64,000 nt of DNA from Chiloscyllium plagiosum (GCF_004010195.1 NC_057718.1:79726514-79790513), one strand, 5' to 3'. Shown: positions 13-63,953, counted from the stretch's first letter. Numbers and translations are program-made. The notes: a model not told the origin generated them from the letters alone.

Positions 13-228
13 GAGAAAGTGAAGACTGCAGATGCTGGAGAGTCAGTGTCGAAAAGTGTGGTGCTGGAAAAACACAGCAGATCAAGCAGCATCCGAGGAG
101 CAGGAGAGTCGACGTCTTGCGCATAAGACCTTCCTGATGAAGGTCTTATGCTCTAAATGTCGACTCTCTTATTCCTCAGATGTTGCCTGACCTGTTAGGC
201 TTTTCCAGTGCCAAACATTTTGACTCAC
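13..228. mobile_element. Penelope-like terminal-repeat insertion, inverted pair, with decayed hammerhead core
   Basis: Minus copy ~13-133 and plus copy 134-226 (ctgatgaaggtcttatgctctaaatgtc) are reverse complements. Flanks attagttacttg (1-12) and attggttacttg (229-240) look like a TSD. Homologous to the PLE 3' end at 7690-7810. Confidence 0.8.
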
Positions 229-1744
229 ATTGGTTACTTGTCAACCTAACTTGATTGTTGGAAAGAATGTCAACATTAGTCTTTGGTGTGGAGTGACAGA
301 CCAGCAGCATAAACTGGAAAAAAAACTTGAACTTATTTATGCTAGGTTATCAATAAGGTTTATTGACAGTTGAACAAAATGGCTTCATGTTCAAATCCTG
401 TAAAATGCATATCATATCCAAGAACTCAATTTTGCACAAACTGCAGCTAGCCCATCAACATTTTTAATATCTTCCTATGTCCATGTAGCTGCCTGAGTGG
501 ATCATGCAAACACTTACCCCTTAATCCTAACATTTAAACTTGTACTTCTTGAAAGTTGGGAGCTCACATTGATTAAGTTTCAATGATGAATAATAACTTT
601 CAGATGGATGGCTAGTGTCATAGCTATCATGAACTTTAATTGTGCATTTGCATTCTTTCAATGTTATTAAATTAATAAACACAACCAAAGACCCTGCATC
701 CTACTCTGGAAACAAAGTTATAAAATTACAGGATAAATTAAAAAATCATTCATTTCTCAAATTAAATTCAATTCCAATACAGATGGGTTTCAAGGCTCTC
801 AATGAAGTGAGGCATACTTAAACAGTATGCATCTAAATTGTGTTGTGTACAGCTTGATGAGCACCACTTGGCAAAGAATTATGATGCCAGTGGAATTGTG
901 CTCGGGAATCGTGAATTGTTTTTATTGGACTTAGTAGCTACAAATCCTGTGACTCTAAACTGAGTCCAGAGTATGCTCTGAGACTGGAAATTAGGCAGAT
1001 GCCTGTAGAAACCTCACTGTTCAGCACACTGCTCCAAAGGAATTCAAAAGGGTTCCAACTGAGCTTATGTCTCATCCCCTGGAGTCCCAGGCATTTAGTG
1101 GCTGGAAACTACACAGAATCATTTGGCAATATGAACTGGATATCAGTTCTCACTATTTACCCTGACATAAATCTTCTAGTCCTGTCCCAAGACTTGCATG
1201 TTATTGGCAGGTTTATAAGAAAAGTAAATAAATCAGACAACTACTTTAAAATTAATTAGCTTGACTTTTATAATTACAGTAAACAAAACTCCTCCCAGCA
1301 TTGTATTTCTGTTAGTTTCTTTAGATCTCACATTTTAATATTCGAGTGTCTAGCTGGCCCAATATTCAATTTTTCCAATGGTAAAGGGCCCATCAAGAGC
1401 AGAAATTTCAGCTTTAGAGACTGCCTTTGAAAGTTCAAATGAAAAATGATTGGTAAAGGGGTACTTTCTGTTTGATTGGCATATTATACAAATGAATCAG
1501 AGCAATCTAAAGATATACAATGAAGTTTACAAATCCTTCAAGTTAACTGATCCTGCTTAATTCAAGACTACATCAAGGAAAGATGCAAATCTTTTTGCAT
1601 CATGTTTATGGAATGTTGTTATTTGGAAATCCAGACCTGGGATTGACCTCCCTCTGTACAAAACATTGCATCTTAAAATTGGTTGTGATTTTAAACAGAA
1701 ATTATAATTTACCAGCACTTCATTTAATACAATCTAGTGTTCAT

Positions 1745-2315
1745 AGTCGCCGCTTATTGTGTGGTCTCCTCTACATTGGGGAGATGAAATGCAGACTGGG
1801 TGATTGCTTTGTTGAATACCTCTTCTCTATCTGTAAAAATTACCCTAAGCTTCCAGGTCCCTGCCACTTCAACATGACACTTCATTCCCAGGTCAACATT
1901 TCTGTCTCATACCTATTGTGGTGCTCCAGTGAAGCTCAAAACAAGCAGGAGGAATGATACATCTTCTTCCACCTAGGTCCCTTAAAGCACTCAGGACTCA
2001 ACACTGAGTTTAATTTCTGAGCATGAACATCTCCCTCCATGTTTGTTACACATGCCCCCCCACTCCCAAGGCCCTTTTCTACATTGGCTGCTTTCAACAG
2101 CAATCGCACATCCCGTTAACACCCATTCAGTATTTACTTCTGCCTTGGTTTACTATCAACAATCCCTTTGTGTTACCAGCTGTTTTCAGTTCTAATGAAG
2201 GGTCACTATACTCAAAATATTAACTCTGTTTTATCTCTCCACGGATGCTATCTACTGAGTTTCTCCAGCATTTTCTGATTCTGTTTCAGATCTCTAGCAT
2301 CTGCAGTTCTTCATT
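1745..2315 (+). mobile_element. Old Penelope-like element 3' fragment (GIY-YIG endonuclease C-terminus plus terminal repeat)
   Basis: ORF 1583-1957 contains CGLLYIGEMKCRLGDCFVEYL...HFN, similar to 7220-7330. Decayed hammerhead-like tctaatgaagggtcactatactcaaaatatt at ~2191-2221, then a ccagcat...gcatctgcag tail. Confidence 0.75.
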
Positions 2316-2329
2316 TTAAAAAAAATTCT

Positions 2330-2510
2330 ATGGGGACTTGTCAGGATAGATGTGGAGAATTTTAGACGAAGAGGCATAATCTCAGAATAAGGATTTAAGA
2401 CAGAGATGAGGAAGAATTTCTTTTCTCAGAGAATAATGAATCTGTGAAATTCTTTACCACGGATGGCTGTTGCGGCTGAGTTGATAAATATATCAAGATT
2501 GAGAGAGACA
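2330..2510 (+). mobile_element. CR1-type LINE 3' fragment
   Basis: gaggcataatctcagaataa...gagatgaggaagaatttc...tctcagag resembles the ORF2 C-terminus at 22825-22920. Confidence 0.6.
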
Positions 2511-2511
2511 G

Positions 2512-2750
2512 ACTGAAAACAAAAAAAAGGTAGAAATCACAGCAGATCAGGCAGTATCCATGGAGTGAAAGCACACTAATGTTTTGAGTCTAGATTACTT
2601 TTCATCAGAGCTAAGGTAAAGTGTGGAAGGGGCAGCATTTATCCAATAATGGGGGAAGGGGAGGGAGGTTGGGGATTTGGAGTGCTGAGATAGAAAGGAT
2701 GTTGATAGTTCAGATTAAGTAATTGGAATGTGAGAATGGCAGAACAATGA
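2512..2750 (-). mobile_element. Decayed PLE terminal repeat (long stem-II subfamily)
   Basis: Reverse strand reads ctctgatgaaaagtaatctagactcaaaacattag...tggatactgcctgatctgctgtgatt. Same family as 41250-41380. Confidence 0.6.
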
Positions 2751-2753
2751 TGT

Positions 2754-2886
2754 GGTGAAAATGAGGACTGCAGACGCTGGAGATTAGAGTCAAGATTAGA
2801 GTGGTGCTGGAAATGCACAGCAGGGCAGGCAGCATCCGAGAAGCAGGAAAATTGACGTTTTGGGCAAAAACCCTTCATCAGGAATG
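2754..2886 (-). mobile_element. PLE terminal repeat with hammerhead core (core G mutated)
   Basis: Reverse strand reads cctgatgaagggtttttgcccaaaacgtc. Begins with the ggtgaaaatgaggactgcagacgctggagat tail seen in other copies. Confidence 0.8.
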
Positions 2887-5095: not shown

Positions 5096-5109
5096 GTTGC
5101 CATGGAAAC
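5096..5109. promoter_or_regulatory. Candidate RFX X-box, with CCAAT box 18 bp upstream
   Basis: GTTGCCATGGAAAC is a near-palindromic X-box, and CCAAT lies at 5074-5078, in sequence I do not recognise as repeat. Motif match only. Confidence 0.3.
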
Positions 5110-5462: not shown

Positions 5463-5562
5463 AGGGGAATTCCTGAAGAAGGGTTCATGCCCGAAACGTC
5501 GATTCTCCTGCCCCTTGGATGCTGCCTGACCTGCTGCGCCTTTCCAGCAACACATTTTCAGC
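5463..5562 (+). mobile_element. 100-bp PLE terminal-repeat insertion with intact hammerhead core
   Basis: CTGAAGA-A-GGGT-TCAT-GCCC-GAAAC-GTC at 5473-5500. Perfect 15-bp TSD aactttcttggtttg at 5448-5462 and 5563-5577. Confidence 0.88.
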
Positions 5563-5598
5563 AACTTTCTTGGTTTGCTTGGCTCATGTACTTATTGG

Positions 5599-5773
5599 GA
5601 GAAGGTGAGGACTGCAGATGCTGGAGATCAGAGTCGAGAATGTAGTGCTGGAAAAGTACAGTAGGTCAGGCAGCACCCAAGGAACAGGAGAATCAACATT
5701 TCGGGCGTAAGTCCTTCATCAGGAATCAGGATGCTGCCTGACCTGCTGTGCTTTTCTAGCACTACATTCTCGA
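5599..5773. mobile_element. PLE terminal-repeat insertion, inverted pair
   Basis: Minus copy 5599-5727 with tail and hammerhead-like core; short plus copy 5728-5776. Flanking direct repeat ctcatgtacttattgg at 5583-5598 and 5774-5789. Confidence 0.88.
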
Positions 5774-6234
5774 CTCATGTACTTATTGGACTCACTTGCT
5801 GAACCACTGGGAGAGCAGAGAATCCTGTTAATAGTTCAATTATATTTTGTAAACTCAGTTTGCATAAAGTGAAAAAACAGTAAGAATTCTGAAGAACCAT
5901 AAGGAATTCCAAATTCAATATGCACTAGAAAGCTTTTCTCTAACAGACATATGGATCCAGCAGAAATTGAACTAAACATTTAATAAAATTAAGAAAGTAT
6001 TCCATACTTATGGAAGTGAAATATTGAACTACAAACTTAGGGAAATCGTATTTGGGATTTTGCTAACACCAAATTACCTGTGGCAATTTTCACCACCATC
6101 AGAGGAAAGGAGTAATTAAAGGATCTGGCAAGTTGACAGGCTCATTTGATTTCATGTTATTAATTGAGGTCAGACAAATGATAAAGGTCCCTCTTGTGGT
6201 ACAGAGGCAGTGTTCCCACCACTGAACGAGGAGG

Positions 6235-7810
6235 CCTGGGAACTGGTTCTCACCATTAACAACTTTTCCTTCCAATCCTCCCACTTCCTCCAAACCAAAG
6301 GGGTAGCCGTGGGCACCTGCTTGGGCTCCAGCTATGCCTGCCTTTTTGTCGGGAACGTGGAACAGTCAATCTTTCGCAGTTACACCGGCACCATTCCCCA
6401 CCTTTTCCTCCATTACATCGATGACTGTATTGGTGCCACCTCGTGCTCCCACGAGGAGGTTGAACAGTTCATCAACTTCACTAACACCTTTCACCCGGAC
6501 CTCAGATTCACCTGGACCATCTCGGACAACTCCTTCCCCTTCCTGGATCTCTCCATTTCCATCTCCATCGAACGACTAACCACAGACATCTACTACAAAC
6601 ACACCAACTCCCACAGGTACCTAGACTACACCTCCTCCCACCCTGCCTCCTGTAAAAATGCCATCTCTTATTCCCAATTCCTCCGCCTCTGCAGCATCTG
6701 TTTCCAGGATGACCAAGTCCACCATAGAAAATCCCAGATGGCCTCCTTCTTCAAAGACCGCAATTTCCCTTCCAACGTGGTCGACGATGCCCTCCAGTGC
6801 ATCTCCTCCATTTCCGACACCTCCGCCCTTGAACCCCAACCCTCCCAACGCAACAAGGACAGAACTCCCCTGGTCCTCAGCTTCCACCCCATCAACTTCC
6901 GTTTCAATCACATCATCCTCCGCCACTTCTGCCACCTACAAAAGACCTCACTACTAGGGATATATTTCCCTCCTCACCCTTATCAGCGTTTTGGAGAGAC
7001 CATTCCTCCCGCAACTCCCTTGTCAGATCCATGTCCACCTCCACCCCCCAATCAGCCCACACCCCACTTCCAGCACCTAGCTCTGCCACTGCAAGAAGTG
7101 CAAAATACGCGCCCACACTTCCCCCCTCACCTCGGTCCAAGGTCCCAGAGGATCCTTCCACATCCGACAGAAATTCACTTGTACTTCCACAAACGTTATC
7201 TACTATATCCAATGCACCCGATGTGGTCTCCTCTACATCAGGGAGACAAAACGCCAGAGAACATCTCTGGGACAGCCGCACCAACTAACCCCACCACCCC
7301 GTGGCTGAATACTTTTATTCCCCCTCCCACTCCGCCAAGGACATGCAAGTCCTGGGCTTTCTCCATTGCCAAACCCTAACCACCCGACACCTGGAAGAAG
7401 AATGCCTCATCTTCCACGTTGGGACCCTGCAACCACATGGGAATAATGTGGATTTCACCAGTTTCCTCATTTCCCCTACTCCATCTTATCCCAGTCCCAA
7501 GTCTCCAATCTGGCACTGTCCTTTTGACCTGTCCTACCTGTCCATTGTCTTTCCCATCTTTCTGCTTCACCCTCCTCTCTGACTTATCACCTTCTCCCCC
7601 ACCTTAATCTACCTATCTCATTCTCAGCTACCTTGCCCCAGCCCCACCCTCCTCCCATTTATCTCTCAGCAACTCGGCCCACAAACCTTATTCCTGATGA
7701 AGGGCATATGCCCGAAATGTCGACTCTCCTGCTCCTCAGATGCTGCCTGGCCTGCTGTGCTTTTCTGGCACCACACTCTATGACTCTGATCTCCAGTCCT
7801 CACTTTCTCC
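6235..7810 (+). mobile_element. 5'-truncated Penelope-like retroelement (Neptune-like): RT, Cys-rich linker, GIY-YIG endonuclease and hammerhead-bearing 3' repeat; frameshifted
   Basis: RT motifs QTKGVAVG..YACLF, YIDD (6414-6425), FLD and YYKHTNSHRYLDYTSSHP..KNAISYSQFLRL. Other frames give CHCKKCK (~7084), VIYYIQCTRCGLLYIRET (7195-7248) and EEECLIFHVGTLQPHGNN. Hammerhead core at 7694-7721. Confidence 0.92.
7694..7721 (+). ncRNA. Minimal hammerhead ribozyme motif in PLE 3' repeat
   Basis: CTGATGA-A-GGGC-ATAT-GCCC-GAAAT-GTC. The C>T at the stem-III CpG differs from other copies. Confidence 0.7.
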
Positions 7811-9543
7811 ATATATGTAAACATGTCTTATAAAACATAGTTCGGGGACAACCTTCCTGATAACTTTATTTTGCCATCGACAAATCACAATAAAGATGCA
7901 TTTCTCTATTATAGATCAGTTAATGTTTAAATTGTACTTTATCAAGGAGAAAAATAAATGAGTTACCCATCCCCTCTTCAGTTCTCATGCAGTATTGAGA
8001 ACCCCGTAAATAAGTAATTGATTGTCAGTAAAGTGAAATCAAAAGCAACAAAACTATTACTTCTGCTTTGATAATGAACATTGTAAAATCATCTCAACAC
8101 TTAACAGATATATCAGAGGTAGGACATAATGTCACTGAAAATAAGTAAAAATAGGAACGCTCAGCAAGTGCATTAGTTTAGAATTTAAATTATGACACTA
8201 AAAATTACACTTTTCAATTAAGCTCAATATAGCCTTTTCTACAACATTGTCAGTGATAGATGCCTTTTCTTTGCCAGATTTCCCATACTTCCACACACTC
8301 TTGTTCTGCTATAACCATTCACACCTCCCTTGCACCCACTCTTTGCTTCTTTAGTTCTTCTTTAGGATTCCCTTTTGCCTTACACCATTAATTCAGTTAT
8401 CATTTAATTAATCATATTTTCTCCCTATCACAGATCCCCATCTTTCTCCTATGCTTCCCTTCACTTTACCATGACTTTGTATGTGTTGAGATGCTCTTAA
8501 TCTCCAACGTCTTCCAGTTCAAATGAAAGATCATCAGCTGAAGCATTGGTCCCAATATCTACTGGAAGGTGGGAGGGTGCAAGTGAAGTTTTGTGAATGG
8601 AGAGGACTTTATTATTATAGTCACAGTGACATTTACAGCACAGATTAAGGCCATTCAGCCCACCAATGCTGGTGCTGGTCAACAAAGATGACATTAATTC
8701 CATTTTCCAGCTCTTACCTTGTAGCCTGGAAGCGATGGCACAAGTGAATATCTAAGTACGACTAAAACATTTCAAGACTTTCTGACTCAACCACCCATTG
8801 AAGAAAATCCAAACAGGATGCAGGAAGGTTGCAAATTAGTCACAAGTGGAGAGGCTGTTTCAGGAGAGAAGAAGTGAGAGGCTGGAGCTTGGGGTGGGAA
8901 AGGGAAGCAATTTCAGAATGGAGGAGAATAGGAGTTCTGGAGTCACCAGGCGAACTTTACAATTGCAGCCCTGAGTGATTAGTAGAGGGTAAGACAAAGG
9001 CTTCTTTGAAGGAAGTCTTCCTACTTCTCCTAGCCTGCATGGAATACTGCTAAATGCACTTAACCTCTTGAGCTGGTAACTCTTACTTTTCTTTCAGTGC
9101 CACTAACATGTGCAAACTTTGCTTTTCTCTTCATAGATGCTACTTCACCTGTTGAGAGTTTCCAACATTTTCCCGCTTTACCTACATTTGTACCTACATC
9201 TAGAAGTAGCTTATTGAAAGAAAGACAAGTCAGTTAAAGGTAAAAATGGAATGGACTGCAGTTTGGACTGAGAGAGAAGCTGAGAATTTAGGGAGTGAGG
9301 CAATCTTACAGGTCAATCTCTTTCTAAAAATGTAACCACTTACAGTTTAACTGAAAATTACTGTTTAAGTAAAGTTTAAGTTTGTTCAAGACTTAGGCAG
9401 AGATTAAATGCACTGATAACTGGATAGTAGCTATAATAATCTTCGAGGGGAAAGTGAGGACTGCAGATGCTGGAGATCAGAGCTGAAAATGTGTTGCTGG
9501 AAAAGCGCAGCAGGTCAGGCAGCATCCAAGGAACAGGAGAATC

Positions 9544-9571
9544 GACGTTTCGGGCATAAGCCCTTCTTCAG
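9544..9571 (-). ncRNA. Minimal hammerhead ribozyme motif, intact core, PRKN-sense strand
   Basis: Reverse strand reads CTGAAGA-A-GGGC-TTAT-GCCC-GAAAC-GTC. The mirror copy at 9838-9865 ends in GTT. Confidence 0.75.
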
Positions 9572-9586
9572 GAATGAGGAAAGTGT

Positions 9587-9666
9587 NNNNNNNNNNNNNN
9601 NNNNNNNNNNNNNNNNNNNNNNNNNNNNNNNNNNNNNNNNNNNNNNNNNNNNNNNNNNNNNNNNNN
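9587..9666. other. Assembly gap (80 N)
   Basis: Run of N. Confidence 1.
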
Positions 9667-11894
9667 AGCACCGCCTTCCTAACCTGCAATCTTCTTCCTG
9701 ACCTCTCCGCTCCCACCCCACTCCGGCCTATCACCCTCACCTTGACCTCCTTCCACCTATCGCATTTCCAACGCCCCTCCCCCAAGTCCCTCCTCCCTAC
9801 CTTTTATCTTAGCCGGCTGGGCACACTTCCCTCATTCCTGAAGAAGGGCTTATGCCCGAAACGTTGATTCTCCTGTTCCTTGGATGCTGCCTGACCTGCT
9901 GTGCTTTTCCAGCAACACATTTTCAGCAGTAGCTATAATAAATTAATTATGCAGCTCGTTTGATCAGTTCTACTGCAGCAGAGCTGACTTTTCCCATTTT
10001 CAGTCAGGAAAGTATGGGGGTTCTGAGGGCAACTTGCATTGAGTGTTGCTTGCACTGAGTGAGAAGCTGGGAATTTGGTGAGTGAAGGAGGGATTAAGGA
10101 GATACCCTTTTCCTTTTTTATCTTTTCCACTCCACTGGTGCTGGCCAACAAAGTTCCCCTTGATGCCTGCTATCTCCCACACTGTTCCATTTTTAAACAT
10201 TTCCCTGGTCAAGCTCACTTCCTGCACAGTTAACAACAGCTGCTCCAATCACAATGCATTTCCCCCTTTAAAATTTGTAGTCTAGCTTTTAAACATTTCT
10301 AGATATCGTTAAGTGATGTTAGCCATTCACAATGCCAGTGTTTGCTGATGGATTCAGGCAAATGATAATGTGGTTAATGGTTAGAGTCTGAAATCAGAAA
10401 TTGAACTTTGCTCCCTCTGTGCTTTAGCCTGAAGAGAAAATCTGGCGTGTTGTGTTTTGATTTGAATGTAAGAGAAGTTTCCACAAAACAGTTACAAAAA
10501 TAAAGTCATAGATTCTCAATGGATCAACCTCAGGAAATAGCCTCAGGAAATTATAACCATTACCTATTTGTTCAGGACTGAAAAAACACTTGCCCTTCAT
10601 TTTTAAGTCATGCACCATTTAGTCATAGATAGTCATTTATAAATAGTTAATTTCATAATTCCCATCCATGTATTCAACTCACTCAATGGCCTCATCCATC
10701 TCCCTCTGCCTTAGTATATCTTTGAGCCCTACAACTTTCACAGATTCATGTATTCCTCTAATTCTGATCTTCTGTACATTTCTGATATTTATTGCCCCAT
10801 CACCGTTGATGTGCCTTCAGATATCTAGGCCTAATGGCTGGAATTCCATCTTTAAACTTCTCTGCCTTTCTGCCTCTCTTTACTAACCCTGCCACCCCAA
10901 AAACACTCCTCAGACCCAACTCATTTGCTCAAATATCCCCTTTAGTAATACTTTTGTGAAGAAACGAGGGTCAATTTAAAGCCAGTCTAAGTGGATCCTG
11001 TTGTTGAAATGAATAGGAGCTGCTTTATATTTTAGAATTCTATACTGGTAAACAGATTAGGATTTTCAATGATATGGCAACAAGTGAGCCTCACTGAATT
11101 ATGCACATACACTGCACTAGCTGCTGAGAGATTCTGCTTTTGGCTTCTGTCCATGTCTTCATTACTACAATCGCAACCTCACCACAGGGAGGTTAAGCTA
11201 AACATCAACTCTAATCCCCTGGCTGCTGAACCATCATCTGGAAAGTTAATAGTGCTATCAGGCCCTTTGATACCTCAGCTAGCTATAGGAATAATTTCAA
11301 TCGAACTGCTAACCTGATCATGTTAATGGCAAATAAAATAACTTGTTTCCCAGTCAGTTTGGGGCTTCACTGAATAATTTTCAGTCAATGGCCCCTCAAG
11401 AATTACTGAAGAGCTGCCAAATATTAATTGAAACAATTAATGGAATGGATCATGTGAAGAACCTGGATACTAGTGCAGCATAATCTATTCTGGTTAAGAA
11501 GTCTTTACAGGATTAATTCTGAAAGAGCTGGAGTTACAATTACTTGAAGAAGTCCCAAAAGGTTAGTAGACTACATGGTAATTAGAAGTTTCTAATATGT
11601 AGTATTTCTCAGGGAATGGTGTTTTACACTAAGTACCAAGGTATCTTCACAGCACAATCCAAGAAAGTCACAAGAACTCTCTTAGAGAGGCATTGTTGTT
11701 TTCATCAAGCTCTCTTTTAAATTTAATGATTCTGAAATCCACAGAGCCTTCAGCCTTTGTAGACATGTTCCATTTTTTATGGGGAGAATTCCACTCCAGT
11801 ATTGTAAACAAAGAGCAATATTTGTAAGACAACAAAAAGACAGAAATCCTGCTTATAATTATTATTGTCTTATACTAAACTTACTTCAAATATA

Positions 11895-12185: not shown

Positions 12186-15100
12186 AAAGCTGAGAGGTAG
12201 GGAAGATCTAGCAGAAAAAGGCAAGAACAGGGGTCCAATGTTGGATGTGAATGCTAGGCAGATGTAAAACTTGGAAATACGAATTGGGAACAGAAGTAAG
12301 CCATTTGATTCCTCAAGTTACTCCACTATCATGGCTGATCTAATTGTGGCCTTTTATTTATTCTTTCATGGGACACGGGCACTGCAGGCTAGTCCATTGT
12401 TTATTGTCCATTCCTAATCACCCAAGGAGTGCCCCAGTATCCTCAGTGAAGATGAAGCCATGACCTGAGGCCCTCTATGCCACCACCACACTGAAAAGGA
12501 AGTGTGTGAATTCTCGGAGGTTGTATTGGCAAGGAGTTCAACTACAGTGTCCAGCAATACATAGAAAATCATCTAAGTAAGTACTCTATCTAGATTAGAC
12601 CCAGGGCTCAAGCTGATAATCACATCTCACACTTACAATCACATGTCTGCAGCACATAGATGAGAAAATGCTCAAAGGGTACGGCACTCAGGATTGCCAG
12701 AGACCAGGCACCTAACCAGCTCCAGGAAAAGCCATGCCCTATTGGCCACAAGAGATGTGATCAATCTTCAAGAAAGATGCACAGGAATTTCAGGCAAGCC
12801 AGAGGCACTCAGCAAGTTGGAATAAAAGGTAAAGGAGTCTGTCTATGTTCCCAATGCTGTAACTGCTCTGTTATGCAAATGCTTGGCTGACTTCATGGAA
12901 AGGTTGGTGAGCCCCTTGAAGATCCAAGTCCAGCAGAATGCTCAATGGCTGCTGGATTTGGATCTGCACTCAACTACTCTCACCATGGCTGCTCAACATC
13001 AATAACAGAGTTAGGGTGGGTGGGTGGGGGATGGGGGAGGGAGGGGGTGGATGAGGAAGGGGGCGTCAATCCCCACACCAAATGCCCCTTCCTCACCAAG
13101 AGATAGGGATGGTACCATTAGGCACCCACCTTTTCAGACAGACTGTAGCAGTTCCTTCTCAGGACATTCCAGAAGTCTTCCTGCCTGTGAACCAAATATA
13201 ACTAGCAGTTCAAGCCCAGGAGGGTACGTCTGCCTGTGTGTAGGACATTCTCATCAAGGGATTTACTAAGCCAAAAGACACCAGAAGACCACCAAAGTCT
13301 TCAAAGTCTATAGACCACACAACACAACAGGCTTGCTCCATAGCAAGTCAGCCTGCATCTAGACATAATCATAGAGAAAGAAGAAGAAAAAAAGACATTC
13401 CTAGGGCTTATTAATGACAAAGCTGTTCAATCATCATATAATATCTGCAACTTTGTAAATATAGTTCACTTCCACTACAATAATATCTGCTGTAGTCTGA
13501 TTGTGCCACTAGCCTTTGGTCAGGTACAGCAATGGTAAAGAAGTGGTGCATCTTCAACTTACAAAAAGATGATCTTACATTGCAACCATCAAACATAGTT
13601 TCTCAGAATGAATGAAGTGGGTGACTGAAGGTAGCTCTATGCATCAGGGAATGACATACCTAAAAATTGGGGATTGCAGCCAAGGAATGATGGAGTAATA
13701 AAAATTGAAAATGTTAGAGAAACTCAGCAGATCTGGTGGCATCTGTCGAGAGAAAAGCAATTTTGAATGCAATAAATCTTCAGAACCCAAGACTTTAGAT
13801 GAATGTCCACGACCCTGAGTCTAAAGTTAACATGTAGGAAAGGAATTGGAGCCTGAGATATTCAAATCATTCACTTCTCATTCACAATAGAGGGAATAAA
13901 TGGTGCACTGTGAATGCTTCCACACATTTTAGGAGGGGAAGTTTTGTCACATATCTAGTCTTCAACAAATAACTTGAAATATTTAAGGCTGTGAGATGGC
14001 CAATGACCAACTTACACATTACATATCCTTAACTGTGCAATGCTCTACTGAAACAAATATATGAATTACAAACCATTGTGCTTTAAGCACTATCAAAGAG
14101 GATGCTCAGGAATAGCAATAACACAGGGAAGGCTCATAATCCTCTGAACCTTTGAAAGCTTGTGAAAGAGAAATGCTCAGAAAGACCATTCTCAAGATGA
14201 GTTAAAAATTTGGTAGTCCTCATAAGGGAATGCACTGCCTGAAATTACTTGTATGGCCTTTACACAAGAGCAATTGTAGCACAAACATCCAGAAGAGAGA
14301 TGTAATGCAAGTCCTCATTGTATAATTATTGCTTTACTGCTAATGCTAGACTAGGATAAAGTTTGTGCAAGCATTCTAGCTTATGAAGAGATGAGGATAT
14401 CAGTTCCACATTTGAAAAGAGAACTGAATTTTTTACTATATAGAGCAATGAATGGTGAAAACAACTAAGTCAGTTACCAATGGGAAATACATTCAGTGAA
14501 GGGTTGTCTGCTAACTGCACAAATTAAATTAGAACTGACAAACAGAAAGCTGAAACATTATAGTTGCATGTAGCTAGAAGGTACTCTCTGGCTTCTCTGT
14601 AACATTGTCCTGTCTTTCTCTCTTTAATGATGCTCCTGTCACATCTCAGATCCACACTTTCATCTTCTTCCTCAGACGATTCGTCTCACTTCTGTACCTC
14701 CTCCTTTTCTGACATGTTTTCCCTTTGCTGACTGAAATTGTGGAGGGCACAGCACACCACTATGTTACAGGATGCCCTGGCTGGATGGTACTGCTTCAGA
14801 GATCAGAATTTCAATTTTTAGAGGTCTATGGTCTGTTGCACATTAGCCCTGGTTGAAGCGTGAGCAGAAAGCACATTTGATATTCCTTGTCATCCACCAA
14901 CCATCATTGTTTAAATAAGACTTACACCTGTGAGTGCTCCAGTATGTACAAATCTTGGTAACTCCTTGAATTTCTAGTGCAGACCTACAAAATCTGGCTG
15001 TTATGGTCATAAGTGAATTGTAATTTAAGGGACTGGATTCCTTTTCTCTTCAAAAACATTTCTGTTGATGATGGAGCACTCTCAAAGCTATGTGGGTATA

Positions 15101-16430: not shown

Positions 16431-16432
16431 CT

Positions 16433-19027: not shown

Positions 19028-19097
19028 CAGTAATAAAATCCAAATAGCATAGTTCTGTCTACATTTAAAGTTCATTATTTAATATAACTGAGAGTAA

Positions 19098-19168
19098 GTA
19101 TGTAAGTTAGCTCACTGAGCTTGAAGGTTTGTTTCCAGACATTTTGTTACCACATTAGGTAACACTGA
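19098..19168 (-). mobile_element. Relic of the Poseidon-like PLE terminal repeat
   Basis: tgtaagttagctcactgagcttgaaggtttgtttccagacattttgttacc...aggtaaca aligns with 52589-52652. Confidence 0.6.
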
Positions 19169-22665: not shown

Positions 22666-22792
22666 TAGGTGAAAGTGAGGACTGCAGATGCTGGAGATTA
22701 GAGTCGAGAGTGTGGTGCTGGAAATGTACAGCAGGTCAGGCAGCATCTGAGGAGCAGGAAGATCAACGTTTCGGGCAGGAGCCCTTCATCAG
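22666..22792 (-). mobile_element. PLE terminal repeat with intact hammerhead core, inserted in CR1
   Basis: Reverse strand CTGATGA-A-GGGC-TCCT-GCCC-GAAAC-GTT (22792-22765). Flanking direct repeat aggatgtttccac at 22653-22665 and 22791-22803. Confidence 0.87.
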
Positions 22793-23529
22793 GATGTTTC
22801 CACCCATCAGGTGAAACTAGGACAAGAGGGCATAGTCTCATGATTAGAGGGAGCAGATTTAAGACTGAATTGAGAAGGAACTTCTTCATCCAGAGGGTTG
22901 TAAATCTATGGAATTCCTTGCCCAGTGAAGTAGTTGACGATACTTCATGTAAATGTTTTTAAAGCTAAGATAGATATTTTTATGATCAGTAAAGGATTTA
23001 AGGGATAAGGTGAGAGTGCGGTTAAGTGGAGCTGAGTCCACAAAAAGATCAGCCACGATCTAATTGAATGGCGGAGCAGGCTCAAAGGGCCAGACGGCCT
23101 AATCCTGCTCCTAGTTCTTATGTTCTTATGTATTGGATAGGCTTTCGGTGATTGACAAGGCACTGGGACAAGGCACAGGCGCCAACTGAGATGTATCCAA
23201 GGACACTGAAGGAAGAGAGAAAGGAACTTATGGGGGGATAGGCCATAATTTTTCAGTCTTTCTTAGATTCAGGGGTAGTGCTAGTAAATTTGTTTGAGAA
23301 AGGATGGGAACAGGAGAAATGCGCAGGGTAAGTTCAGCAAGTAAAGACCAGGTAAGTGTCTAGAAACTACAGTCAGAATCTTATAAGTCCAGAACAATGT
23401 GCTTTGGCAAACATGGGGCAAAATTGTGTGGGAGATCTTATGAAGCCATTTGCAGTATTGGACTTATCTTGTTGCATCGTTTATGTTTTTGCTGAGCAAT
23501 GAAGCCAGTTTCTTGCTAGGCAGCAGCAA

Positions 23530-24296: not shown

Positions 24297-24830
24297 GTTT
24301 CTGAGTTATCAATTAAGGGGGATTATTGCTTGTCAATTGCCTTATTAACACTCCAACTCACCTCATTAATATTCAGCTTCATACCTTACCAAACACCACT
24401 GAACAAGCTAGACTTTGAAAATTCTCAGTATAGAAGTCAGAGTGACTATTTGATGACTTCAACTTGCTGTTTGCTCCAAATGCCCTCCATTTTGGACATT
24501 AGGCATTGAGATCTCAGGGCATGCTTTATGGCCACACACAACCCCACATCCATATTGACTTGTGTCAGCCTCTAAGAATGTTCATGGCACATCTCCAATT
24601 CACTTACAGGATGCATCTGCATTTCAATGCTGCACTGATGGCTGCACCAACAATTATCATTGTAATGCTGCTGCAAGTACAATGTGCATTCAGGGACACA
24701 CACCCAGCACAGTTCCTTGCCTTCATTGTGTTTACTCATTTTCAGCCTATATGAATCCTTACAGCAACTCTGCCTTGCATTTTCTTGACTTGCTTTCTTG
24801 TGCTTTGACCCCTCAGCTGGGTTCATCGTA

Positions 24831-24930
24831 CTGAAGAAGAGTCACTGGACCGGAATCATTAACTCTTCTTTCCCTCCACAGATGCTGTCAAACCTACTGA
24901 GTTTTCCAGGAAGCTTATTATGTTTGACAG
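24831..24930 (+). mobile_element. Decayed PLE terminal repeat
   Basis: ctgaagaagagtcactggaccggaatcattaactc...ccacagatgctgtcaaacctactgagttttccag. Confidence 0.55.
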
Positions 24931-27732: not shown

Positions 27733-27737
<5 letters not shown>

Positions 27738-27773: not shown

Positions 27774-29215
27774 CATTAATCATCTGTGGAAATTGAAACT
27801 CATGTTGACATTATACAATTTACTCTCCATTTTAATTTCTGCTTTTCAACTTAATGCTGCATACAATGATTTTGAGAAAGATCTGCTGCTGATTTAGATC
27901 AATACCAATACTTTTAAGTTGTACCGACAAGTGAACATCTTATTGCAAACACAAAATTTGACATTGTAAAGGAAAAAAAAAACAATCTCACAACACTAAA
28001 CAGACTCCATTGATGTATTTCTCTCAAATGCAATGCTAGGCATACAGTAACCTATTCATATCTGATAGAAAGAGAGAACAAAAACTTTGGATACACATAG
28101 CAGCTCAATCAATATCAGTGGAAAAACTGTGGACTCTTGACATTTCAGGTGCATGCCCTTCTTCCAAATTGAGAACTAATAAATTTGTATATTTGCTGAC
28201 TTGGAGTTCTATAGTGTGAATGTATTGGGAGCTCATGGGATGCAATGGTACTATCCATAATTTTTGAGCCAAGAGGGCTGGGTTCAAGTCCTACCTGCTC
28301 CAGAGTCATGTAATAACAACACTGCATAGGTCGATGTAGAAAATATCCAGAGTTGCAGTAGAGTGGGCTTTTGTGGTGCAATGTTAATGTCCCTAACTCT
28401 GAGACAGGCAGTCCAGGTTAAAGTCTCACCTGGCCCAGCGAGATATAATAAAGTTTCTGAACAGGTTGATTAAAAATAAAATCCAGAGTTGATGCAGAGA
28501 AGATCTTTCCACTTGTGGGAAGTGAAAAGGTAAGGGGCACAAATAAAAGATAGGCACTAATAAAGTAAGCAAAAAATTTATGAGGAGCATTTTTGCTCAG
28601 AATTTTAAGATTATGGAATGGATCACCATTAGGAGCAGTTAAAGTGATTATTACAAATACATTTAGTCCAGTATGTGAGGGTAAAAGGAATAAAAGGATT
28701 ATGCTTATAAAATGTGTACCATCTACATATGTTTATAGAATGTGTAACAACTTGCCAAGCCTCTTGTGACAACACCTTCCAAATCTGTGGCCTCTCCCAC
28801 GAGAAGGACAAGGGCAGCTATTGCAATTGGAGCATTACCACTTACAAGTTCCCCTTCAAACTGCACACCAACCTGATTTGGAACTATATTGCCAATCCTT
28901 CACCATTATTGGGTCAAAAATCTTACAACTGCCTTTCTATCAGTACTGTGGGTATACCTTCACCTCAAGGACTGTAGCAGCTCAAGAAGGTGGCTCTCCA
29001 ACACTTTCTCATAGACTTACTATAGATGGGTAAAAAATACTGGCCTTTTCAGCAATTATCACATCCCATCAACTAATTTAAAAATATTCAACTGACCATT
29101 TTCAAGCCATTTCTGCAGCATTTCTGCCAATCTCCCATTGAGGTATGGAGGGTGACAAGCAGTAGGCCTGCAGAATTTTGACACACAGAATTTTACAAGA
29201 GCCATGAACTGCTAT

Positions 29216-31853: not shown

Positions 31854-31949
31854 GAGTAGATAAAGTGTAGCACTGGAAAAAGCACAGCAGGTCAGGCAGC
31901 ATTTGAGGAGCAGGAGAGTCAACGTATCGGACAGGACCCTTCATCACGA
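31854..31949 (-). mobile_element. Tail-less PLE terminal repeat inserted in CR1
   Basis: Homologous to 5631-5722; decayed core gtgatgaagggtcctgtccgatacgttg. Flanks ctcttttgca (31844-31853) and ctcttctgca (31950-31959). Confidence 0.75.
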
Positions 31950-32304
31950 CTCTTCTGCACCCTCTCTAGTGCAGTCATATCTTCCTACAGACCAGAACTA
32001 CACACGATATTGCAGCTGTGACCTAATTAATGTTGTATATAGCTCTGTCATAACTTTCCTGGCCTTGTATTGAATGCCTTGACAAATAAAGGCAAGTTTT
32101 CCATATGCCTTCTTCAGTACCTTATCTAGCTATGCTGCTGCCTTCAAACCTTCAAGGACATGCATACCAAGATTCCTCTGATCCTTTGTACTTCCTAGGA
32201 TTCTATCATTTACAATGTATTTCCTTGGCTTGGTAGTCCTTCCAAATTGCATTACATTTTTCAGTTTACAATTTACATTAAATTCCATTTGCCATTATTC
32301 AAAA

Positions 32305-41244: not shown

Positions 41245-41382
41245 AAGAGCTCTGATGATGAGCCATCTAAACTCGTTACATTAGCTCACTTTCTTTCTAT
41301 GTATGGATGCTGCCTGACCCGCTGTGATCTCGAGTGTTTTTGTTTTCAGTATACATTCCAGCACCTGCAGTAATTTGCTTCC
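41245..41382 (+). mobile_element. Decayed PLE terminal repeat inserted in the Gypsy protease region
   Basis: ctctgatgatgagccatctaaactcgttacattagc...ggatgctgcctgacccgctgtgatc...ccagcacctgcag. Confidence 0.65.
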
Positions 41383-43082: not shown

Positions 43083-43266
43083 AAGACAAAAAACCTGCAG
43101 ATGCAGAAATCCAAAGTCGACAAGCAGGAGGCTGGAAGAACGCAGCAAGCCAAGCAGCATCAGGGGAGAGAGAGATCAATGTTTCAGGTGTAACCTGAAG
43201 AAGGACATAACCTGAAGAAAGGTTATACCTGAAATGTTGACTTCTCTACCTTCTGATACTGCCTGG
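43083..43266. mobile_element. PLE terminal-repeat inverted pair (another subfamily) inserted in CR1
   Basis: Minus copy ~43083-43195, then plus copy cctgaagaaaggttatacctgaaatgttgac (core with AGGT/ACCT stem) and gatactgcctgg. Confidence 0.72.
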
Positions 43267-44169
43267 TGGTTAAGAAGGCATTTAGAATGCATGCCTTCAT
43301 TGCTCAGACCTCTGAATATCGGAGTTGGGACATTATGTTGAGGTTGTGCAGAATGGTAAGACCTCTGCTGGAGTTCTGTGTCCAGGTCTGGTCATCCTGT
43401 TATAGGAAGGATATTATTAAGCTGGAGAAGGTTGTGAAGAGATTTACCAGGATGTTGCTGGAAATGGAGGGTTTGTGATGGAAGGACAGGCTGCATAAGC
43501 TGAGGCATTTTTCACTGGAGCATAGGAGGTTGAGAGGTGACATAACAGAGCTTTATAAAATCATGAGAGGTATAGATAAGGAGAATGGCAAGTGTCTTTT
43601 TTTCCAGTGTGTAGATTTCAAGACTGGGGGCATTTTTCTAAGGTGAGAGGAGAAAGATTTAAAAATGACATGAGAGACAATTTTTTTACACAAAGAGTGG
43701 TTTGTGTGTGGAATGAATTCCGGATGAAGTAGTGGATGTGGCTACAGTTACAATGTTTAAAACACATTTAGATAAATACATGAATAGGAAATACTTGGAG
43801 GGATATGGGCCAAGTGTAGGTAGGTGGGGCTAGTTTAGGATTATTATCAGCATGAACTGGTTGGACCTAAGGGTCTTTTCTGTGCTGTATGACTTTATGA
43901 CTAATAACTCTTATGTCTGACAAAGTTTCATCTATAACTTTGAAGATAAAGATATTATGTTGGTAAATCTTTCCAAAAATGGTTAATTTTCTTTTAGTGA
44001 TAGCGTTCTGCTTTGTTTCAGAACAGTTTGCACTTGTGGGTCTTTTAGGTGCTGTAGTATTGGCAGTGCATTATGGTGTTTGTACTTTTCTTCCAGTTAT
44101 ACCTTTTCCTCTGGTGATTCTTTTACAGTCTTGAGGAACTGTATCATCACTGAAGGTTTAACCAATCCT

Positions 44170-52579: not shown

Positions 52580-53493
52580 GGTTTAGGGTGTAGGTTTGCT
52601 CGCTGAGCTGTAGGTTTGATATCCAGGCGTTTCATTACCTGGCTAGGTAACATCATCAGTGGCGACCTCCAAGTGAAGCGAAGCTGTTGTCTCCTGCTTT
52701 CTATTTATATCTTTCTCCTGGATGGGGTTCCTGGGCTTTGTGGTGATGTCATTTCCTGTTTGTTTTCTGAGGGGTTAATAGATGGCATCTAGATCTATAT
52801 GCTTGTTTATGGCATTGTGGTTGGCGTGCCAGGCCTCTAGGAATTCTCTGGCATGTCTTTGCTTAGCCTGTCCCAGGATAGATGTGTTGTCCCAGTCGAA
52901 ATGGTGATTTTTTTCATCCGTGTGTAGGGCTATGAGGGAGAGGGGGTCATGTTTTTTTGTGGCTAGCTGGTGTTCGTGTATGCTGGTGACTAACTTTCTT
53001 CCTGTTTGTCCACAAACACTACGTAGGACAAACAGGAAGAACGTTAGTCACCAGGATACATGAACACCATCTAGCCACAAAAAAGACACAACCCCTTCTC
53101 CCTCATAGTCCTACACACGGATGAAAAAAACCACCATTTCGATTGGGACAACACATCTATCCTGGGGCAGGCTAAGCAAAGACATGCCAGAGAATTCCTC
53201 GAGGCCTGGCACTCCAACCACAACGCCATAAACAAGCACATAGATCTAGATGCCATCTATCAACCCCTCAGAAAACAAACAGGAAATGACATCACCACAA
53301 ACCCCAGGAACCCCATCCAGGAGAAAGATATAAATAGAAAGCAGGAGACAACAGCTTCGCTTCACTTGGAGTTCGCCATTGATGATGTTACCTAGCCAGG
53401 TAATGAAACGTCAGGATATCAAACTTACAGCTCAGCGAGCAAACCTACACCCTAAACCTCAACCTGAGCTACAAACCTTCACAAACCTTGCGA
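52580..53493. mobile_element. Poseidon-like PLE 3' end as a long inverted repeat (GIY-YIG C-terminus and hammerhead motif in each arm)
   Basis: Arms 52579-53011 and 53026-53459 with a 14-nt spacer. The plus arm translates KHYVGQTGRTLVTRIHEH..HHFDWDNTSILGQAKQRHAREFLEAWHS..INKHIDL (one frameshift). 34-nt extra tail at 53460-53493; 10-bp TSD ataagtataa at 52570-52579 and 53494-53503. Confidence 0.93.
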
Positions 53494-55011
53494 ATAAGTA
53501 TAAAGTATTTTCACAGCTTCAAATATCATGATTAGGTGTGGTGTTACAAAGTAGGTATGTTTTTAATGCAGCAACATAAAGAGATTTGTCCTTACTGGTA
53601 TCGAACAGCCTTGTGTATTTGTTCACACGCATGACAGTGCTTTTCCAGTGAAGAAAACACATGTCCTGTCAACTACGCAATCATATTTTCTACCTCAATT
53701 TAAATAGGTCTGGTTGATTAAGTAAACTGTTTTTGACACTTGAGAGGTTATCTGAACTTGAAAAACATTTAACCATCTGTACATTGATTGATGGGGCACT
53801 CTTCTTTGAAATTGAAATGAGCATCTCCTGTACTTTTCTTTTCAGAGAGCCAGTAGATAGCTGTAGCTGTTATCAATGATTGACTAAGTTTTAAGTGCTT
53901 CCATACTCTTCAGGCAATTTAATATAGCTTGAAATTGATCTGTGAACCAGACATGCACGTAAAAATACAAAAATGGTGTGTGAAGTGACATGTTGGTCAT
54001 GTGTACAGTTTCTAAGCAGCAAAAGTATGCAGGGGCTATCCCAGAGGCCAGAAGAAGATTTAATCTATCATCTCTATTAGACATGAAGTGAAGGAACAGT
54101 GCCTCCAGAATAGCTGTCCTCAAGTGCTTATTTTTTAACCAGGATGTAAAAAGAATTAATGCTGAAGCAAAAAAGTTTGAAATAAATCAAGCATATAAAT
54201 AAATCAAACTCTGATAGTTTGACTTTGATTAGCTATTCTAACCATCTTCTCTCACCTTATAACAATTAAGTAAAATTAAATAGAAATGTTAAAAATTAAT
54301 ACAGCAGCAAACATAGAAAGTATATAAATGTGGCTAGCATGCAACAAATGTAAAACACAGAAACATGCTATTTTGCTGCAGTACTGTGTCTATATTCCAC
54401 AAAAGGCTCTTGAAGCTCTATTTACTTAATTTCACCCTATCAACATAACGTTCTACTCCTTCCTCCCTTGCCGTTTGTGTAGCTTTCATCAAATGCATCT
54501 ATATTATTCATCTCAACGATTTGGTAACAAGTTTGCCTTCTCATTCTTTCTCAGAGGAGCACATTCCTAGCTATGTGAGTTGTTCAATACTGTGTGTGAG
54601 CAGGTTCTAAACTGATACACCTCTGAATTATCTATCATTTATTTAGGATAGAACTGGAAACAGTGGTGCTTAAGAATTGAATTCTACAAGCAAGAAATTG
54701 TGGGTTGGAGTGGTGGTTGTAATGTAAAAAGAAAGGCATGCACATAAACATAAATATTTCTCAAGATAGAACAATTTTAATCTTGCTTGACTGATGAATA
54801 ACTCCATCATATTCTTTTTAGAATATAAATTCTCTCTTCTCTCTCATGTTAATATTTGCAGTCAAATTATTAAACTGCGCTTTTTTATTTAATTGTAGAG
54901 TAATAAAGGTTTTAAAATAGAGTTGGGGAGAAATCTGCTTTCATTTTTTTGTCATTTTAGTCAATATAATACTCTCATATGGCAAAACGTCTGTACAGTA
55001 ATAGCACTTAC

Positions 55012-61244: not shown

Positions 61245-63165
61245 TCTCATTCAGGACACTCCTCAGCCTTCTTAGCTCCAAGGAAAACAACATCAACCTA
61301 TCTAGTCTCTTTCTTTTAGAAAAAAATCCAGTCCAGATAGCATGTGCATGAGTCTCTTCTACATCATCTCCAGTATAATCGCATCCTTCCTACTGTGTAG
61401 TGACTAGGACTGCACATAGAACTCCAACTTTGACCTCACCACATCTTGTTTAATTCCATTATGACTACCTGGCTTTTGTATTCGACACCTCAATGAATAA
61501 AGACAAGTATTCCATATACCTCTTAACCATACTATCCACCTACTTTGTTGCCTTCAAGGATCTATAGACATATACACTGTTGTCCCTCTGTTTTCAATAC
61601 TTCCTAGGGCCCTACCATTTATCATGTATTTTTACCTTTTACCTAAATTCATCACCTCACACTTATCAGGAGAAAATTCCATTTGCCATTGTTCTGCCCA
61701 CCTGACCAGCCCCTCTATATTGTCCTATAAACTCCCAAAGCTTTCTTCTTGCTATTTACCACACCACTACATTTTTCTGTCATCTGTGAACTTACTGATC
61801 AAACCTCTAACATTCATGTTGAAATCATTAATGTACACTACAAACAACAAGGAACCCAACACTGCAGTATGCCATTAGACACATTAACAACCTTTGAACA
61901 ACATTCCATGCCACTTTCCATTAAGCCAACTTTGGATTCAATTTGTCAAATTGCCCGAATCCCCTGGGTCTTAGACCAATCTTTCACATAACACCTTGTC
62001 AAAAGCTTTTCTGAGGTCCATGCAGACTGCATCAACTGCACAACCTTCATCTACACATCTAGTCACATCCTTGAAAAGATTAGATTAGATTAGATTACTT
62101 ACAGTGTGGAAACAGGCCCTTTGGCCCAACAAGTCCACACCGCCCCGCCGAAGCGCAACCCACCCATATCCCTACATTTACCCCTTACCTAACACTACGG
62201 GCAATTTAGCATGGCCAATTCACCTGACCTGCACATCTTTGGACTGTGGGAGGAAACCGGAGCACCCGGAGGAAACCCACGCAGACACGGGGAGAACGTG
62301 CAAACTCCACACAGTCAGTCGCCTGAGGCGGGTATTGAACCCGGGTCTCTGGCGCTGTGAGGCAGCAGTGCTAACCACTGTGCCACCGTGCCGCCCAAAA
62401 CTTTCATGAAACCTGTCAGATATGATCTCCCCTGACAAAACCATGCCTATTATCCTTGATTAATCCTTGTCTCTCCAAGTGAAGATTGGCTCAGTGGCTT
62501 TTAGTTCCTCAATTTATCCCTACCACTCTTCTTGAATAACTGTACAACATTAGCAGTCTTCCAGTTCTGCGACCATTCAGGATTTGAAAGTAAATGTTGC
62601 AACCTTCTTCCCTTCCTCCCATAACAGTCTGGAACATAGCTCAAAAGTGTATCGAGGCTTATCCAATTTTAAGCTTGCTAAAACTACTACTATCTCCCTC
62701 CCTATCAATGGGAATTTGCTCAACTTTCTCACAGACCTCAATGCTGATTTACATATCTATACTTTCCTACTCTATAGTGAATAAAGATGCAAAGTACTCA
62801 TTCAAGCCTTACTGATGTCTCCCAGACCCTCACATACAGATTACCATGTTGGTCTCTAATGGACCCTGCTCTTTTCCTTGATTATCCTCTTGCCTCTAAT
62901 ATATTTACAAAGGACCTTTAAATTTTCCTTTACCTGAATCATCTTTTTTTTAATCACACCCATCTTTGCTCCTTTACCTTTTTTCTAAGTATCCTTCTGC
63001 ACTCCCTATATACCTCTAAAACGTCTGCTGTTTTTTGGCCATAGGTATCTACCATACCCTTCCCTTTTTTTCCCTTATCGAATCCTGTACATTCCTTGAC
63101 CTCCAGATTTCTCTGCGCTGGTTGGTCCCAACCCTGATCTTTGTGGGAACATGTTGGCTTTGCAC
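61245..63165 (-). mobile_element. Older CR1-type LINE interrupted by a SINE
   Basis: Reverse strand gives VCMDLRKAFDKV (~61993-62030) and a QWQMEFSPDKCEV-like motif (~61655-61693); linker region at 62750-63100. Confidence 0.82.
62077..62396 (-). mobile_element. Full-length young HE1/V-SINE-type SINE
   Basis: Reverse strand gggcggcacggTGGCACAGTGGttagc (A box), GGTTCAATACC (B box), central domain, LINE-like 3' end, (TAATC)4 tail; CpGs retained. Confidence 0.94.
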
Positions 63166-63194
63166 TCTCACTGTTTCGTTTTTGAATTAATATC

Positions 63195-63560
63195 TCAGAA
63201 ATTGTGGCATTGGAGGAAATTACAGAGATACAGAAGGATGAGGCTATGGCAGGATTTGAACGCAAGGTTAAGAATTTTAGAAGCAAGATATTGTTTGACC
63301 AGGAGCCAATGGAAGTCAGTATATACTGAGGTGATAGGGATCACCCCAGGGGAATTAGAACTTTTGATTACTTCACATTTACAGAAGGTAGAATGAGGGG
63401 GACCAGCAAGGAAGATTTTAAATTAGCTGAGTCTAACAGTGATAAAGGCATGGATCAGGGTTTCATTTGAAGAGAAGTTAAGATGGGTGAGATTGGGCAT
63501 TATTATGAAATTGGATATAGTGATCTTAGAGATGGTGCAACTTGACGCAAGAAACTTATG
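63195..63560 (-). mobile_element. Possible L2-like LINE fragment
   Basis: Reverse strand tgacttccattggctcctggtcaaacaa...ttctaaaattcttaacctt resembles an LHWLPV..I.FKIL motif. Confidence 0.5.
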
Positions 63561-63800
63561 TCAAGATCAATTGCTGAGCAGATATCACAGTGTCAGAATA
63601 ATTATAAAAGATTTTTCAGGAAATGATCCAAGAATCACCAGAAGGAAATGATAAAATCTTTTAGACGAGGCATGAAAAAACCTGCTGTTGAACCTGTGAG
63701 AGCAACTATTACATTTTGCAATCATCTGGCACAGTAGGCTATTCTAAGAAACTATAAGAGTAGCATAAAAGTCTACATTGGTGTCCACTACATTTTTTTA

Positions 63801-63953
63801 TGATGTGGAGGTGCCGGTATTGAGCTGGGATGGACAAAGTTAAAAGTCACACTACACCAGATTATAGTCCAATAGGTTTATTTGGAAGTACAAACTTTCG
63901 AAGCACTACTCTTTCATCAGGTAGCTATAGCCCGGTGTTGTGTGAATTTTAAC
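63801..63953. mobile_element. PLE terminal-repeat inverted pair, third family, decayed hammerhead core
   Basis: Reverse strand ctgatgaaagagtagtgcttcgaaagttt (63920-63892). 63925-63953 is an inverted copy of 63839-63867, and the left arm has a ~38-nt extra tail (63801-63838). Confidence 0.7.

Follow-up and report, generated by a model that had tools for sequence, protein, structure and literature searches.

What are hammerhead ribozyme motifs doing in number within the introns of a vertebrate gene, and could they cut its RNA? The question is raised by a stretch of 64,000 nucleotides from the shark Chiloscyllium plagiosum (GCF_004010195.1 NC_057718.1:79726514-79790513; hereafter the window, meaning this stretch at its full length). 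A sequence-only reading of it had noted more than a dozen minimal hammerheads from several Penelope-like element (PLE) families in the introns of Parkin (PRKN), and had suggested that a giant intron could thus carry many latent self-cleavage sites. We are confident that the motifs are minimal type I hammerheads in the pseudo-long terminal repeats (pLTRs) of at least five PLE families, and infer that the copies in Parkin are likely to be inert by-products of retrotransposition. Since tens of thousands of copies are present in the genome, and both strands of Parkin carry them equally, they are most likely inert passengers.

The Parkin context is borne out. Exon 7, of the RING1 region, lies on the minus strand at approximately 55010-55150 of the window (E=7e-19; PF17978, E=2.3e-22), and the window consists of intron 7 sequence plus 9 kb of intron 6. 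Exon 8 was found by motif scans 178 kb before the window start, giving an intron 7 of ~233 kb. A search with PF01485 failed to place the downstream exons, which were placed by the motif scans, and exon 3 was placed by a weak motif match; the located range is exons 2-12, spanning 932 kb on the minus strand (chromosome coordinates 79415955-80348137) of a 3.56 Gb genome. As Parkin is on the minus strand, its pre-mRNA contains minus-strand motifs only, and just two intact cores in the window are sense to the gene, at 9544 and 22765, 13 kb apart.

Motif cores and their fold

The five cores that had been named individually (at 5473, 7694, 9544, 9838 and 22765; Table 1) are all present where they had been placed. 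A hammerhead descriptor requiring CUGANGAN, a stem of 4 bp or more and GAAA matches the window seven times, compared with a mean of 0.115 and a maximum of 1 in 200 dinucleotide shuffles, and chance is therefore excluded; when a paired ANNUH is added there are six matches in the window and 0.03 in the shuffles. Profile hidden Markov models (HMMs) built from the descriptor matches identify 24 family fragments in the window. These recover, with a hammerhead part, ten of the 12 positions that had been listed as decayed; the other two, near 2600 and 41252, were scored by the tail only, their heavily decayed cores being discernible by eye. Fragments at 13702, 19095, 28088 and 43109 are additional to that list. 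No more than four of the window's cores have survived fully intact (5473, 9544, 9838 and 22765), most of the other copies being broken. The core at 7694 is in place but is not intact, since CpG decay has removed the C of the stem III palindrome and left U15.2-G16.2. Stem II does differ between families as the sequence-only reading held, although one of its forms, the AGGU/ACCU at 43212, probably represents a minor or decayed variant of the GGGU/ACCC of family B. A check against Rfam, run on the window, returned no hammerhead family among eight matches with E<=10; the Rfam models are blind to these minimal motifs.

Five families, A to E, can be told apart by stem II and tail. The core elements CUGANGA, GAAA and UH are invariant in eight family representatives, while the seven variable pairs are standard-paired in 54 of 56 cells, against a mean of 26.8 and a maximum of 41 in 20,000 shuffles, which ignore relatedness between families and so do not yield probabilities. 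Pair counting in families A-D gives 92 % paired, a value that none of 500 shuffles reached and that compares with 17-42 % for slid partners; family E, which MAFFT set one column off, stands outside this count and was scored by motif anchoring among the eight representatives. Three of the four helix II pairs change on both sides, with 97.5 % of cells paired in families A-D. The cleanest case of covariation is stem I pair 3 of family D, both columns of which are free in the search pattern: the 25 loci have C-G (13), G-C (9), U-A (2) and U-G (1). At helix II pair 3 the same number of family D loci show U-A (13), C-G (10), U-G (1) and U-U (1), and stem I pair 4 is unpaired in all 25.

Stem III is palindromic and loopless, as had been described, with ACGU in families A-D and AGCU in family E, and 15.2-16.2 covaries. 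The extra nucleotide between A9 and G10.1 is A in families A, B, C and E and U in family D, and G10.1-C11.1 is G-C in seven of the eight representatives and G-U in the remaining one (D1). The description of stem I as 2-3 bp holds for families A, D and E, but families B and C have 4 bp; D and E have 3 bp, and family A has 2 bp followed by a U-U mismatch at pair 3 and one further pair. Monomers are predicted to be weak, as had been claimed, helix III being without a loop. Even the double-hammerhead fold is predicted to be less stable than two separate monomers for all six representatives folded, lying 1-6 kcal/mol above the two monomers and 5-15 kcal/mol above the cofold minimum. These predicted weak folds fit the report that single minimal hammerhead ribozymes (min-HHRs) are inactive and that dimers are weak (PMC4209133).

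We note that in families A, B and C (window 9834-9870) the cut site coincides with, or lies close to, the midpoint of a second short palindrome, with the forms GUC|GAC in family B and older A copies, GUU|AAC in C and UC|GA in young A copies; family D is without one. In families B and C it arises from a second occurrence of the cleavage triplet in the 5' strand of helix I, and such a palindrome could permit a competing inactive pairing.

Link to Penelope-like elements

That several PLE families are involved is well founded, since at least five repeat families are present and four of them (A, B, D and E) can be tied to PLE coding remnants. A truncated and frameshifted reverse transcriptase (RT) segment lies directly upstream of the motif at 7694 and includes a CxxC linker followed by a VIYYIQCxxCxxxYIxET-type, GIY-YIG-like stretch (window 7080-7286), which is also present at loci L208 and L216. 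Family B has a Neptune-type GIY-YIG upstream, which at locus L216 matches PF01541 with an E-value of 0.0014, short of the curated cut-off, and family E has a Neptune-type remnant upstream at loci L100 and L104. Family D, which we take from motif likeness to be Poseidon-like, shows endonuclease C-terminal homology ~105-155 nt upstream in 11 of 15 copies, in a search with a window copy as query in which two of the 11 are the window's own. Pfam gave nothing significant for the coding remnants of families D and E. The remnants thus suggest that families A, B and E are Neptune-type, with a CxxC linker; a CxxC linker together with GIY-YIG is described as the Neptune layout by Craig et al.

Pattern matches across the genome number 56,661, comprising 32,185 (A), 14,393 (E), 9,695 (D), 249 (B) and 139 (C), some of the D matches not being intact because the D pattern has free stem positions; reversed-pattern controls gave no match anywhere in the genome for any of the five families. 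Same-strand pairs 2.4-3.8 kb apart were considered as full-length tandem elements and rejected, as they are separate insertions or host duplications. The near-identical family A stubs L075:2731 and L075:6415, 3.7 kb apart with identical flanks, represent a local duplication of host DNA after insertion. At L191, near position 1560, a family E copy has landed directly in the tail of a family D copy, one PLE within another.

Insertion anatomy and RNA reads

The copies are 5'-truncated insertions with a tail that has two preferred 3' ends, and many of them have an inverted copy as partner. Target-site duplications of 10-16 bp flank five of 13 window insertions examined, and two more have 8-bp matches that may be due to chance. 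Among 179 copies, close neighbours of the same family diverge in 36 pairs and lie on the same strand in 7. These features (5' truncation, adjacent inverted 5' copies and a tail, optional and 30-40 bp long in the known cases) are those of insertions by endonuclease-bearing (EN+) PLEs. The family A 3' ends cluster at ~+53..+67 and +90..+100, ~30-35 nt apart, the second cluster being bounded by the reference length.

Family A is represented by 85 copies in the first 564 kb: the 5' end of 40 falls within -8..+2 of C3, where helix I starts, and that of a single copy lies near the cut site. An inverted copy abuts 19 of the 40 on the upstream side. Of 30 young copies drawn from the whole genome and selected for a whole motif, 22 have no more than 6 nt of element sequence upstream. 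The sharp start at helix I is seen in A, C and part of E; family D copies mostly reach far upstream, and the sharp start is therefore not universal. For a young family A subtype there is no excess of starts at the cut site genome-wide, with raw counts of 34 at +1 compared with 18 at +2 and 27 at -1, and 30 inspected +1 loci comprise 13 flagged fold-backs, seven indels, five inverted element pieces recognized by eye and about five host junctions. The helix I starts and the lack of a cut-site excess together indicate that the templates of this subtype were likely to be uncut. In one genome-wide scan, 14 of 27 matches have the GAAACGUC core deleted between two CGA repeats, so that the catalytic strand is lost through a microhomology lesion that recurs.

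RNA was represented by one 2026 single-cell run of fragmented poly(A) RNA, from an organism related or identical to that of the window and of a kind that shows cleavage ends poorly. Family A is covered by 2,570 reads on both strands, with a depth that climbs smoothly over the cut site, and no pile of read ends was called at the cut site for family A or for family D (113 reads), although the library could hide such ends. At 9834, the stub boundary, 118 reads have loose ends. A polypyrimidine run ending in AG, resembling a 3' splice site, is found ~25 nt upstream of the family A motif (9803-9837 and 7655-7693), and Penelope of Drosophila virilis has an intron that ends at helix I. An intron ending ~25 nt upstream of the motif was nevertheless rejected here, as the single-cell reads contain no canonical joint.

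Copies across the Parkin gene

Between exon 12 and exon 2 (909,820 non-N bases) we find 301 copies, which divide into 154 in sense and 147 in antisense orientation (p=0.73); 22 sense and 16 antisense copies have intact cores (p=0.42; 95 % confidence interval of the sense fraction 0.41-0.74). This corresponds to 331 copies and 42 intact cores per Mb, and exact young motifs number 12 in Parkin against 14.7 expected at the genome rate. An apparent excess of core mutations on the sense strand (15/260 against 6/269) was not replicated in new sequence (3/150 against 5/150). In 83 family A copies spanning motif and tail, CpG columns depart from the majority in 109 of 496 cells, three such columns lying in the core or helix III, and the rate of decay of the cores is close to that of the adjoining tail, in a near-neutral manner. 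The suggestion of latent cleavage sites in a giant intron is accordingly unsupported: half of the copies are antisense, intact sense copies are neither depleted nor enriched, the density is the genome average and decay is tail-like. In fold-back copies, such as 43-226 and 5598-5778, the motif is moreover predicted to be buried in long hairpins.

Several observations weigh against this account of inert PLE copies. The strand test, with 38 intact copies, excludes strong purging but leaves room for mild selection. Non-CpG columns are slightly less mutated in the core than in the tail of the same 83 copies (29/829, 3.5 %, against 83/1566, 5.3 %; p=0.053); the core is A-rich, and a base-matched comparison of core and tail differed mainly at A. 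Gaps between intact sense copies of family A are 1.6, 4.0 and 13 kb, the other ten exceeding 38 kb, and with two such copies lying 1.6 and 4.0 kb from another, dimers in cis are conceivable. Family C has weak upstream matches to PLE open reading frames (ORFs) in only two of 36 copies, its tail being common to A and B; a full-length ORF was not read, the three long inverted loci having N interiors; and the shuffles used for covariation, as mentioned above, take no account of relatedness.

Origin and role of the motifs

Taken with the anatomy of the insertions, these data suggest the following course. The fold would be selected in active master elements, where it may work as a dimer through the 4-bp palindromic helix III, with cleavage that probably requires the element's protein, as with the Poseidon element of the anole. 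Reverse transcription would begin within the tail and in many cases cover only ~95-130 nt, the cDNA ending at a fixed point, the start of helix I, which is the likely 5' end of the uncut element RNA. A lone inserted copy without a helix III partner nearby is predicted not to cut host pre-mRNA. A more specific proposal, which we make tentatively as a possibility with the odds somewhat against it, is that in these Neptune elements the 5' limit of the RNA template is set by the hammerhead fold, reverse transcription from the tail copying uncut RNA as far as the first bases of helix I and often folding back at that point. If so, there would be about a million stubs and more than 100,000 intact cores genome-wide (extrapolated from the 331 and 42 per Mb of Parkin), and the genome would be a fossil map of PLE reverse transcription in which hammerhead cleavage lies off the path of most insertions.

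Could sense copies instead be conditional cut sites in nascent Parkin intron RNA, with a protein or a copy in trans enabling them to alter splicing or yield? The 22 intact sense cores within 910 kb offer the opportunity, the abundance of family A RNA (the 2,570 reads of the related run) makes trans partners possible in principle, and precedents exist in the protein-assisted cleavage described for the anole element (PMC11167929) and in the conserved intronic hammerheads reported in RECK and C10orf118 (PMC3088659). We nevertheless consider it very unlikely, given the lack of strand bias in number or intactness and of local enrichment, the failure of the sense core-mutation hint to replicate, the predicted energy of the double hammerhead above both monomers and cofold minimum, and the reads that cross the cut site without a pile of ends, though the library type could conceal these. 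Very unlikely, too, is that the repeats are retrozymes without long terminal repeats (non-LTR retrozymes) or a short interspersed nuclear element (SINE) family self-replicating through circular RNA. Most copies are indeed short and non-coding, and retrozymes are described as deriving from PLE pLTRs, one chondrichthyan example among them (bioRxiv 10.64898/2026.07.22.740005); but tandem arrays of the motif were not found in the window, close neighbours diverge far more often than they share a strand (36 against 7), and the longer copies continue straight into PLE 3' untranslated region (UTR) and ORF remnants, by which this explanation is largely refuted.

A different alternative concerns the master elements, in which the fold might be kept for a non-catalytic job, whether as a mark of the RNA 5' end or promoter, as an RT stop or for second-strand priming by fold-back. 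The sharp helix I starts in A, C and part of E (19 of 40 such A starts having an inverted copy upstream), the absent cut-site footprint in the young family A subtype, and the U-U mismatch at stem I pair 3 of family A, the most successful family, all speak for such a role, as do the reports that catalytic mutants leave insertion in vitro unaffected (PMC11167929) and that Naiad PLEs are described as entirely without hammerheads. Yet across five families the catalytic letters, together with the UH triplet and the palindrome of helix III, either do not vary or covary, which points to catalysis at some step, and most family D copies begin far upstream of the motif; we regard a purely non-catalytic job as doubtful. 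A non-catalytic role in the masters is in any case compatible with inert intronic copies.

On the interpretation of the Parkin copies as inert by-products, the repeats have little significance for Parkin itself, where they are present at background density and without strand bias. The occurrence of 22 sense, core-intact min-HHRs in one vertebrate gene with no sign of purging supports the silence of lone PLE hammerheads. The sharp helix I start without a cut-site excess would be the in vivo counterpart of the uncut-RNA insertion substrate known in vitro, and the young families are ready test material for the role of PLE hammerheads.

Other features of the window

The hammerhead-bearing copies and related fragments are listed in Table 1. 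The window also contains abundant 3' fragments of a long interspersed nuclear element (LINE), at 18415-24220, 29733-30241, 32468-32878, 42112-43839 and 59388-60007, with RVT_1 matches at 21466 and 42112; we take these to be CR1/L2-like. A short interspersed repeat is present in four copies that are 79-93 % alike (11970-12123, 16432-16623, 32929-33166 and 62089-62409) and resembles a shark tRNA-derived SINE.

Table 1. Hammerhead-bearing PLE copies and related fragments in the window
Feature	Position	Strand	Remarks
Family A head-to-head pair	43-140 (minus), 129-226 (plus)	both	Both cores decayed; predicted single long hairpin
Family C stub	2187..2284	+	Core at 2191 decayed; stem I AGUU/AACU
Old A/C-like fragment	2534..2615	-	Core near 2600 heavily decayed; tail alone scored
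Family A stub	2786..2886	-	G12 lost through CpG decay
Family A stub	5469..5563	+	Intact core 5473-5500, antisense to Parkin; 15-bp target-site duplication
Family A fold-back insertion	5598..5778	-	Core 5695-5722, stem II broken; 16-bp target-site duplication
Neptune-type PLE, 5'-truncated, frameshifted	6168..7812	+	RT C-terminal part, CxxC linker, GIY-YIG-like stretch, 3' UTR, hammerhead 7694-7721, tail
Young family A inverted insertion	9447..9928	both	Intact cores 9544-9571 (minus, sense to Parkin) and 9838-9865 (plus); arms identical at 102/105; 14-bp target-site duplication; 80-base N stretch inside
Family C tail fragment	13702..13755	-	Profile HMM
Decayed family D fragment	19095..19164	-	Profile HMM
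Family A stub	22668..22795	-	Intact core 22765-22792, sense to Parkin; 13-bp target-site duplication
Family C stub	24828..24912	+	Core decayed
Old family A-like fragment	28088..28164	-	Core decayed
Family A/B-like stub	31861..31952	-	Core near 31930 decayed
Very old fragment	41245..41330	+	Core near 41252 barely recognisable; tail alone scored
Family B head-to-head pair	43109..43308	both	Plus copy: core 43212-43238 kept, stems I and III damaged
Family D (Poseidon-like) inverted insertion	52580..53495	both	Endonuclease C-terminal remnants; 10-bp target-site duplication; both cores broken, 52626-52659 (minus, U16.1 to C) and 53379-53412 (plus, C3 to U)
Family E stub (AGCU-type stem III)	63827..63954	-	Core 63892-63920 decayed; inverted tail piece present

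Comparison with known systems

By their sequence the motifs appear to belong to the min-HHR class of metazoan PLE pLTRs, with which they agree in every sequence feature examined. In common with the min-HHRs of Cervera and De la Peña (2014; PMC4209133) they have type I topology, an intact core, an extra nucleotide between A9 and G10.1, G10.1-C11.1 and a loopless palindromic 15.2-16.2, and they occur as dispersed single copies of truncated PLEs and as close opposite-strand pairs. Helix I differs in being 2-3 bp in families A, D and E compared with 4-5 bp in the min-HHRs described there, where the value is 4-5 bp in Schistosoma and 2 bp in D. virilis. The copy number is far above published counts for the class, with at least 56,661 pattern matches here against ~4,000 in coelacanth and ~9,000 in Xenopus, which were obtained by a different method (PMC4209133). 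Sharks are not named in a portion of the main text of that paper or in two of its supplements, and a literature search, with most subscription journals outside its coverage, found no paper devoted to shark PLE hammerheads.

A further parallel is the Poseidon element PAc of the green anole (Frangieh et al., 2024; PMC11167929), which likewise has a pLTR hammerhead followed by a tail, two 3' ends ~30-35 nt apart, insertion from uncut RNA and, as reported, no RNA reads ending at the cut site. Its hammerhead is described as cleaving only with protein, uncut RNA as its main insertion substrate, and its RT start sites as two and internal. PAc was tested biochemically, whereas the shark families are known here from sequence, and the clade differs, since families A, B and E appear to be Neptune-type and only D Poseidon-like.

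The RECK and C10orf118 hammerheads (Perreault et al., 2011; PMC3088659) also lie in introns of vertebrate genes and have a proposed repeat origin, but each is reported to be single, to be conserved between species and to work as a monomer in vitro, whereas the Parkin copies are multi-copy, have no helix III loop in any family, are found on either strand and show neutral decay. Non-LTR retrozymes (bioRxiv 10.64898/2026.07.22.740005) share the type I hammerhead and an ancestry in PLE pLTRs; they are described as tandem arrays that are depleted from introns in Xenopus, in contrast to the shark stubs, which are dispersed or inverted and occur in the intron at the genome-average density.

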